Source: a virus. From it: a stretch of DNA of 11,339 nucleotides. Location: the UHGV virus genome UHGV-0227772; one strand, 5' to 3'. The notes below the pieces were generated by a model. That model was not told where the DNA came from. It searched no databases and saw only the letters and a list, made by a program, of their open reading frames with translations. Every line of letters begins with the position of its first letter. Position 1 is the first letter of the stretch. This document shows positions 2,284 to 3,147 of the stretch, in pieces. Position numbers and translations under genes: made by a program.

Positions 2284-2655
2284 ATGCAAAAAAAAGAAAT
2301 TCGCCGTTTACGTCTCAAGGAGTGGTTTAAAGATAAAACTCTGCCACCCAAAGAGAAGAGCTACCTATCTCAACTAATGAGCGGGAGAGCCTCGTTTGGA
2401 GAAAAGGCTGCCAGAAGAATAGAGCAAACATACGGGATGCCGGAAGGGTATTTGGATGCGGAATACGCAGAACAACCGGAGGTTTCTCCGCCACATGCAG
2501 GGTTAACGTCTAATCAACTGGAATTATTGCAGATTTTTTCAGCCTTCCCTGAGGATGAGCAACGCCAGATAATCAGCGAGTTAAAACAGAAAAAAGAATC
2601 AATGGAAGATCTCATAGCGAGATGGATTGCGGCGCAAAAATGCCGCCGCGCCTAA
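2284..2655 (+). CDS. paaR2: XRE-family HTH repressor, DicA/PaaR2-like (CI-equivalent)
   Basis: ATG at 2284 (MQKKEIRRLRLKEWF...), 123 aa; the track's longer ORF starts at a GTG at 2203 inside the operator region. HTH segment KSYLSQLMSGRASFGEKAARRIEQTYGMPEGYLD and C-terminal LELLQIFSAFPEDEQ resemble DicA as I recall it. First gene of a regulator-antitoxin-toxin triplet. Confidence 0.6.
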   Translation: MQKKEIRRLRLKEWFKDKTLPPKEKSYLSQLMSGRASFGEKAARRIEQTYGMPEGYLDAEYAEQPEVSPPHAGLTSNQLELLQIFSAFPEDEQRQIISELKQKKESMEDLIARWIAAQKCRRA

Positions 2656-2675
2656 GTTATAAAACCGGAGGAAAC

Positions 2676-2867
2676 ATGAATAGAGCCCTTTCACCAATGG
2701 TTTCTGAGTTTGAAACCATTGAACAAGAAAACAGTTACAACGAATGGCTGCGTGCGAAAGTAGCAACGAGCCTTGCAGATCCGCGCCCAGCAATTCCCCA
2801 TGACGAAGTTGAGCGCAGAATGGCAGAACGCTTTGCTAAAATGCGCAAGGAACGGAGCAAGCAGTAA
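2676..2867 (+). CDS. paaA2: Small antitoxin, PaaA2-like (ParE-associated)
   Basis: 63-aa ORF MNRALSPMVSEFETIEQENSYNEWLRAKVATSLADPRPAIPHDEVERRMAERFAKMRKERSKQ with GGAGG at 2666-2670. Stop TAA at 2865-2867 is followed one base later by the toxin ATG. Confidence 0.6.
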   Translation: MNRALSPMVSEFETIEQENSYNEWLRAKVATSLADPRPAIPHDEVERRMAERFAKMRKERSKQ

Positions 2868-2868
2868 A

Positions 2869-3147
2869 ATGTTACCCGTGTTATGGCTTGAAAGCGCAGA
2901 TACCGACCTAGATGATATAACTAGTTATATTGCTCGTTTCGACATAGATGCGGCAGAACGCTTATGGCAGCGATTAAGGGGTTGTGTGCTGCCGTTATCC
3001 GAACATCCGTATTTATACCCACCAAGCGACAGAGTACCTGGCTTGCGTGAGATTGTGGCCCACCCTAACTATATAATTCTATACCGCGTAACAACATCAA
3101 GCGTTGAAGTAGTAAACGTGATCCACGCAAGACGCCAGTTTCCCTAA
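2869..3147 (+). CDS. parE2: RelE/ParE-superfamily toxin, ParE2-like
   Basis: 92-aa ORF MLPVLWLESADTDLDDITSYIARFDIDAAERLWQRLRGCVLPLSEHPYLYPPSDRVPGLREIVAHPNYIILYRVTTSSVEVVNVIHARRQFP. Pattern W..E.A..DL..I..YIA..D..AA..L, PGLRE, Y.ILYRV, V.V..V.HARR is typical of ParE-type toxins. Tightly coupled to the upstream antitoxin. Confidence 0.7.
   Translation: MLPVLWLESADTDLDDITSYIARFDIDAAERLWQRLRGCVLPLSEHPYLYPPSDRVPGLREIVAHPNYIILYRVTTSSVEVVNVIHARRQFP

Follow-up and report, generated by a model that had tools for sequence, protein, structure and literature searches.

How is a toxin-antitoxin (TA) pair governed when its genes directly follow a phage repressor gene? Three genes between positions 2284 and 3147 of UHGV virus genome UHGV-0227772 raise this question; we refer to the whole 11,339-nucleotide stretch as the window. 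The original prediction, made from the letters alone, placed these genes where lambda carries cI-rexA-rexB and proposed that a single protein serves both as the regulator of the TA pair and as the prophage immunity repressor. We conclude that 2284-3147 is almost certainly the paaR2-paaA2-parE2 operon and window 1463-3261 the immunity region of a lambdoid prophage of the CP-933P/Sp12 type. The identity of the operon and its regulatory logic have been published before, and the locus is an ordinary, already characterized system.

RESULTS

Three co-oriented genes match a known operon.

The genes lie on the plus strand in the order regulator, antitoxin, toxin, the arrangement of a three-component TA system (Table 1). 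Their predicted layout, with 63- and 92-amino-acid products and a 1-nucleotide gap, is exact to the base: 20 bases separate paaR2 from paaA2, and base 2868 alone separates paaA2 from parE2. The motif GGAGG (2667-2671) precedes paaA2, and paaR2 has no Shine-Dalgarno sequence. Pfam matches and 100% identity to solved PDB chains for the 63- and 92-residue products, and identity to PDB entries over residues 1-65 of the 123-residue product, indicate that these are real genes, not chance open reading frames. The anticipated likeness to paaR2-paaA2-parE2 of Escherichia coli O157:H7 proved to be a matter of the same system, since PaaA2 and ParE2 are 100% identical to their O157:H7 counterparts and PaaR2 differs at two residues (121/123 identical; E66/V67 here, G66/G67 in O157:H7). 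The scan found no promoter- or terminator-like site between paaR2 and paaA2, and the repressor gene is not cut off from the downstream pair. A single operon and a PRM933P start at the paaR2 ATG have both been published, in line with the idea of co-expression from a lysogenic-type promoter.

Table 1. Features of the immunity region and of the adjoining left operon (window coordinates).
Feature	Position	Strand	Details
ydaT	1463-1888	-	CII-analogue activator, 141 aa; Pfam YdaT_toxin PF06254, E=8e-11
YdaT operator OM	1878-1895		TTGATTTTCATGAATCAA, at the ydaS/ydaT junction
ydaS	1885-2187	-	Cro-analogue HTH repressor, 100 aa, divergent from paaR2; Pfam YdaS_toxin PF15943 (E=2e-12), HTH_3
OR-type intergenic control region	2188-2283		96 bp; divergent promoters PR933P/PRM933P
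PR933P	-35 TTGACT 2244-2239, -10 TAAACT 2220-2215	-	Consensus scan
PRM933P	-35-like TTGCTT 2249-2254, -10 GATAAT 2272-2277	+	Read from sequence
paaR2	2284-2655	+	123 aa; ATG 2284; CI-analogue repressor/regulator
paaA2	2676-2867	+	63 aa; ATG 2676, TAA 2865-2867; antitoxin
parE2	2869-3147	+	92 aa; ATG 2869; ParE-family toxin
Conserved hairpin after parE2	3161-3230, inner helix 3169-3209	+	RNA fold
OL-type operators and PL933P	3215-3261	+	-35 TTGACT 3232-3237, -10 TAAACT 3254-3259; GTTTAGT at 3219
dicB	3975-4163		In the left operon of the window

PaaA2 and ParE2 are a ParE-type pair whose antitoxin lacks a DNA-binding domain.

ParE2 is 100% identical to chain B of PDB 5CW7/5CZE (E=7e-60), so the ParE fold proposed for the 2869-3147 product is that of a solved structure of identical sequence. 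Pfam ParE_toxin (PF05016, E=1.9e-16) covers its full length, and PDB 3KXE, 6X0A, 5CEG, and 8C24 give weak but significant matches. PaaA2 is 100% identical to PDB 3ZBE/5CW7/5CZE; its sole Pfam domain is PF21217 (PaaA2, E=1e-19), and the NCBIfam label "RelB family antitoxin" rests on a 45-residue model only. Because PaaA2 has no DNA-binding (RHH) domain, the pair is not a canonical ParD-ParE type II TA system. Homology to RexA/RexB was likewise rejected: the two proteins are members of the PaaA2 and ParE families and have only their position in common with the lambda proteins.

Hallez 2010, as cited in PMC8630535, defined the three-component operon and its down-regulation by PaaR2. The O157:H7 pair is addictive, conferring post-segregational killing and stabilization of a mini-F plasmid (PMC8630535). 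In the same study, a reporter of the 3' end of the operon, where the TA genes lie, was appreciably expressed in both states of the switch, so TA expression does not strictly follow the PaaR2-on state. No ParE2 activity was found in either state (PMC8630535), and the biological pay-off of linking TA to immunity is for this reason still hypothetical. That ParE2 is toxic, that PaaA2 neutralizes it, and that PaaR2 represses the operon has been shown experimentally for the O157:H7 proteins (PMC8630535) and would be expected of the present allele, whose proteins are identical or nearly identical in sequence.

PaaR2 is a functional analogue of CI.

Over residues 1-65, PaaR2 has the same sequence as PDB 7NKV/8C3K, which were deposited under the name "Phage repressor protein CI." A Pfam search with the 123-residue protein returned zero matches, Peptidase_S24 included. 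The original prediction also suggested a search against DicA, which gave only a C-terminal likeness: PaaR2 70-119 aligns with DicA 81-130 (NF007257, E=9e-7), at 28.8 bits against a curated cut-off of 101. Membership in the DicA family was rejected, the match being confined to the C-terminal part and below that cut-off. Assignment to the lambda CI/LexA-type (S24 peptidase) class was rejected as well; PaaR2 is a functional analogue only.

Jurenas 2021 (mBio, PMC8630535) described PaaR2 as a CI analogue translated leaderless from PRM933P. The transcription start of this promoter, mapped by 5' RACE, is the paaR2 ATG, and N-terminal sequencing yielded MQKKE (PMC8630535). PaaR2 represses PR933P, PRM933P, and PL933P in reporter fusions (PMC8630535), the kind of experiment that the original prediction called for; these published fusions bear out the proposal that one protein is both the TA regulator and the immunity repressor. 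The same study includes EMSA, DNase I footprints, and GFP fusions to PRM, PR, PL, and PRE. A peptidase motif and a response to mitomycin C are both absent (PMC8630535). Since PaaR2 has no Pfam match and no S24 peptidase domain, RecA-mediated induction is not expected. The analogy of PaaR2 to CI, and of PaaA2/ParE2 to RexA/RexB, is positional and functional and is not one of homology.

Operators and identical promoters flank the operon.

OR has GTTTAGT operator half-sites beginning at positions 2198, 2216, and 2255, and within the window these repeats are restricted to OR and OL, which lie ∼1 kb apart. The operator repeats of OL match those of OR (repeat families D1-D3, I1, and I4). Published work describes four 18-bp palindromes in OR, with the precise PaaR2 operator sequences not defined (PMC8630535). 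Promoters had been proposed in 2188-2283 and 3219-3259, and the consensus scan located TTGACT/TAAACT pairs in both (2244 to 2215 on the minus strand and 3232 to 3259 on the plus strand). The hexamers of PL933P are identical to those of PR933P, as PMC8630535 also states. PL933P faces outward from the operon, in the direction of DUF1391, dicB, and the exonuclease gene; PaaR2 and YdaS repress it ∼100-fold (PMC8630535). The -10 element of PRM933P, GATAAT, is six bases upstream of the first base of the paaR2 start codon, consistent with the published +1.

YdaS differs from its O157:H7 counterpart at 5 amino acids and YdaT at 2. YdaS binds and represses PR, PRM, and PL and is Cro-like, YdaT is CII-like, and a dual reporter showed the switch to be bistable (PMC8630535). 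YdaT activates PRE933P (PMC8630535; PMC9986795). At 1878-1895, TTGATTTTCATGAATCAA matches the published 5'-TTGATTN6AATCAA-3' exactly and is the sole such site in the window; its position agrees with the published DNase I footprint of YdaT (PMC9986795). The count of one match with at most two mismatches is about what chance gives (shuffle mean, 1.03), and the weight of the site lies in its location and exactness. All elements tested of a CP-933P-type immunity layout (ydaS-ydaT, OR, PR/PRM, OL/PL, and the YdaT site) are present, and all published cis elements were found in the window.

A conserved hairpin follows parE2. The fold of 3140-3225 has a free energy of -24.2 kcal/mol (z=-5.2), and 0 of 200 shuffled sequences were equally stable. 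The hairpin is conserved in 4 alleles, with one compensatory change from C-G to U-A at 3169/3209. A simple terminator scan did not flag it, and it has no clean U-tract. Rfam (gathering thresholds) and ARAGORN gave no matches over the window. The function of the hairpin is not mentioned in PMC8630535. It may be the terminator of the operon, insulating it from PL like the terminator after lambda rexB.

The immunity region behaves as an exchangeable cassette.

In a sister prophage with the same backbone (L002), homology covers window 1-1894 and 3269-9582. Between these two segments, where the window has 1895-3268, lie a Cro/CI-family gene and a gene for a 214-aa LexA-family repressor, with no TA pair. 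Since exactly this block is replaced, we conclude that ydaS, OR, paaR2, paaA2, parE2, and OL/PL act together as a single immunity cassette that can be exchanged; the sharp boundaries at 1894/1895 and 3268/3269 indicate that such swaps do occur.

Among 5,426 complete E. coli genomes, 593 (∼11%) contain paaR2, and a 1.5-kb cassette query was covered to at least 80% in likewise 593. The TA pair occurs in 624 of these genomes; the two figures, 624 and 593, are compared as totals only. Evi, an isolated temperate coliphage, has an intact module whose ParE2 is 100% identical. When the whole 11.3-kb window was compared with the same 5,426 genomes by megablast, no record reached 80% coverage. The window is a mosaic.

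DISCUSSION

A phage repressor in charge of a TA pair.

The picture that best accounts for the locus is as follows. PaaR2, a small oligomerizing HTH repressor in the role of CI, would be translated from a leaderless mRNA beginning with the ATG of paaR2 and driven by the weak promoter PRM933P. By occupying GTTTAGT-type operators at the 96-bp OR and at OL ∼1 kb away, it would silence rightward PR933P, which serves ydaS-ydaT and then the replication genes, and leftward PL933P, which serves DUF1391, dicB, the exonuclease, xis, and int. On its own promoter it would stimulate when low and repress when high. YdaS, like Cro, would compete for the PaaR2 operators, giving a bistable switch, and YdaT, bound to TTGATTN6AATCAA (1878-1895), would turn on PRE933P, a second, CII-like route to paaR2 transcription. 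paaA2 and parE2 would be carried on the repressor transcript, in the slot of lambda rexA-rexB. Labile PaaA2, degraded by ClpAP and ClpXP, would neutralize ParE2 in a tight complex; because this antitoxin is unable to act on transcription, the phage repressor would take over control of the TA pair. The outcome would be addiction: a cell that loses the immunity cassette would be poisoned.

Gene identity, cis elements, and the boundaries of the cassette are shown by the sequence comparisons made here. Regulation, leaderless translation, bistability, toxicity, and addiction come from the literature on the O157:H7 allele, for which the functional evidence was obtained largely with plasmid reporters in a K-12 background, and they probably extend to the nearly identical allele described here. 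Nothing in the sequence speaks against this explanation.

Other readings of the operon.

The first description of the system, Hallez 2010 as summarized in PMC8630535, took it for a self-contained TA unit, and PMC8630535 remarks that one could picture it as a "split antitoxin." On this view, a tripartite TA system simply ended up in a prophage, and PaaR2 regulates the TA operon only and not immunity. However, the PR of ydaS-ydaT and PL, ∼1 kb away, have operators of one type and share their -35/-10 hexamers, and PaaR2 represses both promoters in published reporters (PMC8630535). The replacement of 1895-3268 by a cro and LexA-type cI cassette in the sister prophage assigns paaR2 to the cI position of an immunity region that can be exchanged. 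We consider this reading already largely refuted and give it next to no chance of being right. Hardly more probable is that a promoter of its own, in or just after paaR2, provides most of the transcription of paaA2-parE2, in which case the toxin would not be truly tied to the immunity switch. Such a promoter would explain why the operon 3' reporter is appreciably on in both switch states (PMC8630535), although read-through from PRE933P is an alternative upstream source (PMC8630535). No sigma-70-like site was found on the plus strand in 2284-2676, the sole internal plus-strand match (2888-2916) lying within parE2, and published expression studies point to one operon (Hallez 2010, as cited in PMC8630535).

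What the TA pair is for leaves somewhat more room. Its rexAB-equivalent position on the repressor transcript and the occurrence of the module in an isolated temperate coliphage and in ∼11% of complete E. coli genomes would suit a module devoted mainly to phage exclusion or abortive infection, like RexAB, rather than to addiction. Other TA systems are known in phage defense. However, none of the three proteins, PaaR2, PaaA2, or ParE2, matched a PADLOC defense model, which leaves their assignment to a known defense system unsupported, and the sole demonstrated phenotype is post-segregational killing with plasmid stabilization (PMC8630535); we regard exclusion as the main function as improbable. 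A broader suggestion, still unlikely but less so, is that in a live phage the pair has a job unseen in CP-933P, either RexAB-like exclusion/abortive infection or a lock that kills cassette-swap recombinants, with the hairpin at 3161-3230 a terminator that insulates PL. Addiction under the control of the immunity repressor is the reading that we prefer.

Comparison with known systems.

The closest relative is the cryptic prophage CP-933P (Sp12) of E. coli O157:H7 (Hallez 2010; Sterckx 2016; Jurenas 2021, PMC8630535), which has the same gene order, lengths, and spacing and shares the divergent ydaS-ydaT genes, the OR/OL operators, the PR/PL hexamers, and the YdaT OM site. The O157:H7 locus is 95.6% identical in DNA to window 1-3427, where homology stops. 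Its OR copy is 97 bp long, compared with 96 bp here, owing to a 1-base indel accompanied by substitutions in a T-run (window 2205-2212), and a further single change, G for A, lies two bases upstream of the paaR2 start codon. Past 3427, the left arm is a different mosaic from that of CP-933P, with exonuclease, xis, and int apparently intact in the window; O157:H7 EC4115, by contrast, has IS1203 inserted in the exonuclease gene and a frameshift in int. Published work treats CP-933P as a decayed, noninducible prophage. O157:H7 records match paaR2 at only 98.4% and the TA pair at 99.2%, and homology ends at 3427; we therefore rejected the possibility that the window is literally CP-933P of O157:H7 and regard it as another allele from a different host strain.

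The system is a textbook exception among type II TA systems, its toxin being wired into a lysis-lysogeny-type bistable switch through a phage repressor, and that connection has already been made and tested (Hallez 2010; Jurenas 2021; Prolic-Kalinsek 2023). The window adds a natural allele and some minor novelties, namely, the comparative demonstration of cassette exchange (1895-3268, in L002), the ∼11% frequency in E. coli, the occurrence in the isolated phage Evi, and the hairpin after parE2; it raises no new question. Canonical two-gene parDE type II systems, such as Caulobacter ParDE1 (PDB 3KXE), share the ParE-fold toxin with a labile antitoxin encoded directly upstream. Unlike in this locus, where a separate regulator is the phage repressor and PaaA2 has no DNA-binding domain, the TA complex regulates itself in parDE systems. 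DicA of the Qin prophage in E. coli K-12 occupies the same cI-position slot upstream of a left operon containing dicB; DicA is not known to be followed by a TA pair.

Lambda cI-rexA-rexB has no sequence homology to the operon, and its accessory genes are rexA and rexB, whereas those here encode a ParE-type TA pair. The spacing of OR and OL is wider in lambda than the ∼1 kb of the window. The OR of lambda has three palindromes, and that of the paaR2 system has four of 18 bp (PMC8630535). The position resembling that of cI-rexAB, noted from the outset, is also recognized by Prolic-Kalinsek 2023 (PMC9986795), where paaA2-parE2 is stated to replace rexA-rexB. The logic of the two systems is the same: a leaderless repressor gene under a weak, autoregulated PRM, two accessory genes on the repressor transcript, a divergent Cro-like gene, a CII-like gene, operators at both ends of the operon, and a bistable switch.

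Identity of the three genes

At 2284-3147, the original prediction read three plus-strand genes for a regulator, an antitoxin, and a ParE-like toxin, placed as lambda places cI-rexAB. The coordinates are exact; paaR2 and paaA2 are separated by 20 bases and paaA2 and parE2 by the single claimed base (2868). A Protein Data Bank sequence search found the 63-aa PaaA2 to be 100% identical to 3ZBE, 5CW7, and 5CZE. ParE2 is 100% identical across 92 residues to 5CW7 and 5CZE (E = 7e-60), with weaker matches to further ParE toxins (3KXE, 6X0A, 5CEG, and 8C24). Residues 1 to 65 of PaaR2 are identical to 7NKV/8C3K, titled "Phage repressor protein CI." Structures have thus been solved for the complex of toxin and antitoxin, for the antitoxin alone, and for the regulator's N-terminal domain. 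Pfam assigns the antitoxin to PaaA2 (PF21217) and the product of 2869-3147, expected to have a ParE/RelE fold, to ParE_toxin (PF05016); the 123-aa PaaR2 had no Pfam match, the S24 peptidase domain included.

Compared with O157:H7 EC4115, the PaaA2 and ParE2 proteins are identical (two synonymous base changes in each gene), and PaaR2 is changed only at residues 66 and 67 (E-V in the window, G-G in O157:H7), immediately beyond the solved N-terminal construct (residues 1 to 65). Thus, by sequence, the locus is an allele of paaR2-paaA2-parE2, which goes beyond the likeness originally proposed. The suggested relation to DicA held in part: residues 70 to 119 of PaaR2 resemble the DicA C terminus (NF007257 positions 81 to 130; E = 9e-7; 28.8 bits against a cutoff of 101), while the N-terminal HTH part has no NF007257 match.

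Features of the window
Feature	Coordinates	Strand	Remarks
O-like replication gene	478-1455	-	Beyond ydaT
ydaT	1463-1888	-	Upstream of paaR2, divergent
ydaS	1885-2187	-	Upstream of paaR2, divergent
Promoter in 96-bp intergenic region 2188-2283	TTGACT 2244-2239, TAAACT 2220-2215	-	Scan
paaR2	2284 (ATG) to stop ending 2655	+	123 aa
paaA2	2676 (ATG) to TAA 2865-2867	+	63 aa; GGAGG 2667-2671 upstream
parE2	2869 (ATG) to stop ending 3147	+	92 aa
PL-type promoter downstream of parE2	TTGACT 3232-3237, TAAACT 3254-3259	+	Scan; same hexamers as OR promoter
DUF1391 gene	3438-3590	+	First gene of PL-driven left operon
dicB	3975-4163	+	Cell division inhibitor; PF05358, E = 8e-36
DUF1482 gene	4154-4348	+	Overlaps dicB
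Exonuclease	4441-6930	+	829 aa; Exonuc_VIII N-terminal part and Rv2179c-like 3'-5' exonuclease domain
Excisionase-like gene (xis)	6986-7261	+	Overlaps int
Lambda-type integrase (int)	7230-8348	+	Arm-binding and catalytic domains
YkgJ-family CxxCxxCC gene	9573-9887	+
ORF	10177-10650	-	157 aa; no family match
Protein with YadA-type membrane anchor	10739-11251	-	170 aa
ORF	11139-11336	-	65 aa; overlaps YadA-type gene

Control regions and operon structure

The half-site GTTTAGT occurs four times in the 11.3-kb window (2198, 2216, 2255, and 3219), every time inside the control regions OR, upstream of paaR2, or OL, downstream of parE2; shuffled sequences averaged 0.99 matches, and 5 of 200 reached four. 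Longer operator-like repeats, in both orientations, are common to the two regions. The YdaT site mapped by Prolic-Kalinsek et al. in 2023 (PMC9986795), 5'-TTGATTN6AATCAA-3', has a single exact copy in the window, at the ydaS/ydaT junction (1878-1895), a count that alone is not beyond chance, so its weight rests on position and exactness. OR measures 96 bp in the window versus 97 bp in O157:H7 and in coliphage Evi. The T-run at 2205-2212, between the first two GTTTAGT repeats, varies among alleles in length and sequence (TTTTTTTT in the window, TTTTTTGC in O157:H7, and TTCTTGC in Evi).

On inspection, the paaR2 start is not preceded by a Shine-Dalgarno sequence, and GATAAT (2272-2277) lies six bases ahead of the A in its ATG. 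Downstream of parE2, a strong plus-strand hairpin (3161-3230) precedes the PL933P promoter. The fold of 3140-3225 has an energy of -24.2 kcal/mol (z = -5.2), and four alleles retain the hairpin, in which the 3169/3209 pair shows a single compensatory change from C-G to U-A. A clean U-tract is missing, a simple terminator scan raises no flag, and the published study of the locus (PMC8630535) does not mention the structure. The hairpin would end the operon as a possible terminator.

That study (Jurenas et al., 2021, mBio) concerns the same locus in prophage CP-933P of O157:H7 EDL933. Coexpression of the three genes, as predicted, agrees with a single operon down-regulated by PaaR2 (Hallez et al., 2010, Mol Microbiol 76:719, as cited in PMC8630535). 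The transcription start of PRM933P falls on the start codon of paaR2, so that translation of PaaR2 is leaderless, as confirmed by its N-terminal sequence, MQKKE (PMC8630535). PaaR2 and YdaS footprints reveal overlapping operators along the 97-bp intergenic region (PMC8630535). The reporter fusions suggested earlier have already been carried out: GFP fusions of PRM933P, PR933P, and PL933P are repressed by PaaR2 and by YdaS, consistent with the double role, in toxin-antitoxin control and immunity, envisaged for the regulator (PMC8630535). In the same work, PRM933P is activated at low PaaR2 and a PRE-like promoter by YdaT, the switch is bistable and heritable, and the whole region stabilizes a mini-F plasmid on par with ccdAB. 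PaaR2 lacks a peptidase motif and is unresponsive to mitomycin C, and no SOS induction, as a sign of ParE2 activity, was seen in either switch state (PMC8630535).

An exchangeable immunity cassette

A prophage of strain SMN197SH3 has the same backbone as the window, with identities of 92.7% (1-1894) and 92.5% (3269-9582). Where the window has 1895-3268, this prophage instead encodes a Cro/CI-family protein and a 214-aa LexA-family repressor, and the toxin-antitoxin pair is absent. Of the two breaks, one coincides with the edge of the YdaT operator and the second lies nine bases beyond the PL -10 element; ydaS, OR, paaR2, paaA2, parE2, the hairpin, and OL/PL thus swap as one immunity unit.

A stand-alone toxin-antitoxin system, with a regulator distinct from the immunity repressor, is contradicted by this swap, by the PR and PL operators, and by the published PaaR2 repression data. 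If the pair were instead driven by an internal promoter, the published reporter, on in both switch states, would fit, but our scan of the paaR2/paaA2 interval found neither promoter-like nor terminator-like sites that could split the regulator from the pair. By analogy, the pair might have a RexAB-like exclusion role, for which the operon position is the sole argument; against it, PADLOC returned no matches.

Gene identities, spacing, promoters, operators, the YdaT site, and the cassette boundaries are established here. The window allele would act like the near-identical O157:H7 allele, and the element would gain a stabilized immunity cassette. The predicted unit is confirmed and its interpretation supported.

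Mosaicism and distribution

The window is a mosaic, CP-933P type over 1-3427 and SMN197SH3 type over 3269-9582. The O157:H7 locus matches only 1-3427 (95.6%), and beyond 3427 the window follows the SMN197SH3 type. No single locus in the collection of complete E. coli genomes covers 80% or more of the window. Upstream of dicB lies a divergent candidate DicF-like small RNA (3743-3791, plus strand), a full-length match to Rfam DicF that scores 29 bits where the gathering score is 48 (E = 2e-4, search of 441 bases), followed by a weak STnc100 match (3803-3952). Similarity to related prophages stops at ~9371-9582, and the prophage may end there; over ~9371-11339, the best E. coli matches reach only 88.5% identity.

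Among 5,426 complete E. coli genomes, 593 carry paaR2; the 1.5-kb cassette query reaches a coverage of 80% or more in an equal number, the two sets being compared by number only. The toxin-antitoxin pair is present in 624, a surplus of ~30 that matches the 30 hits at 80 to 95% identity, presumably diverged homologues, of which the CP-933M copy is an example. An isolated coliphage, Evi (LR597642; infant fecal samples), has the module intact, with 97.5% identity in DNA, and the ParE2 it encodes (LR597642.1, 6986-7264) is 100% identical to that of the window. In the Evi record, parE2 is unannotated, paaR2 is a "putative regulator," and paaA2 is a "hypothetical protein."

Comparison with known systems

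The original interpretation matches almost wholly an account already known in detail. The locus has a dedicated regulatory study and solved structures. The additions made here are small, namely, the cassette comparison, frequency, live phage, mosaicism, and DicA similarity. In O157:H7 EC4115, IS1203 splits the exonuclease gene and int carries a frameshift, whereas exonuclease, xis, and int read as intact in the window. In the literature on the O157:H7 allele, paaR2 and the toxin-antitoxin pair are cotranscribed, ClpAP and ClpXP degrade the labile PaaA2, ParE2 triggers the SOS response, and the module causes postsegregational killing. There, PaaR2 is the analogue of CI at OR and OL, YdaS that of Cro, and YdaT that of CII; lambda cI and PaaR2 also have leaderless translation in common.
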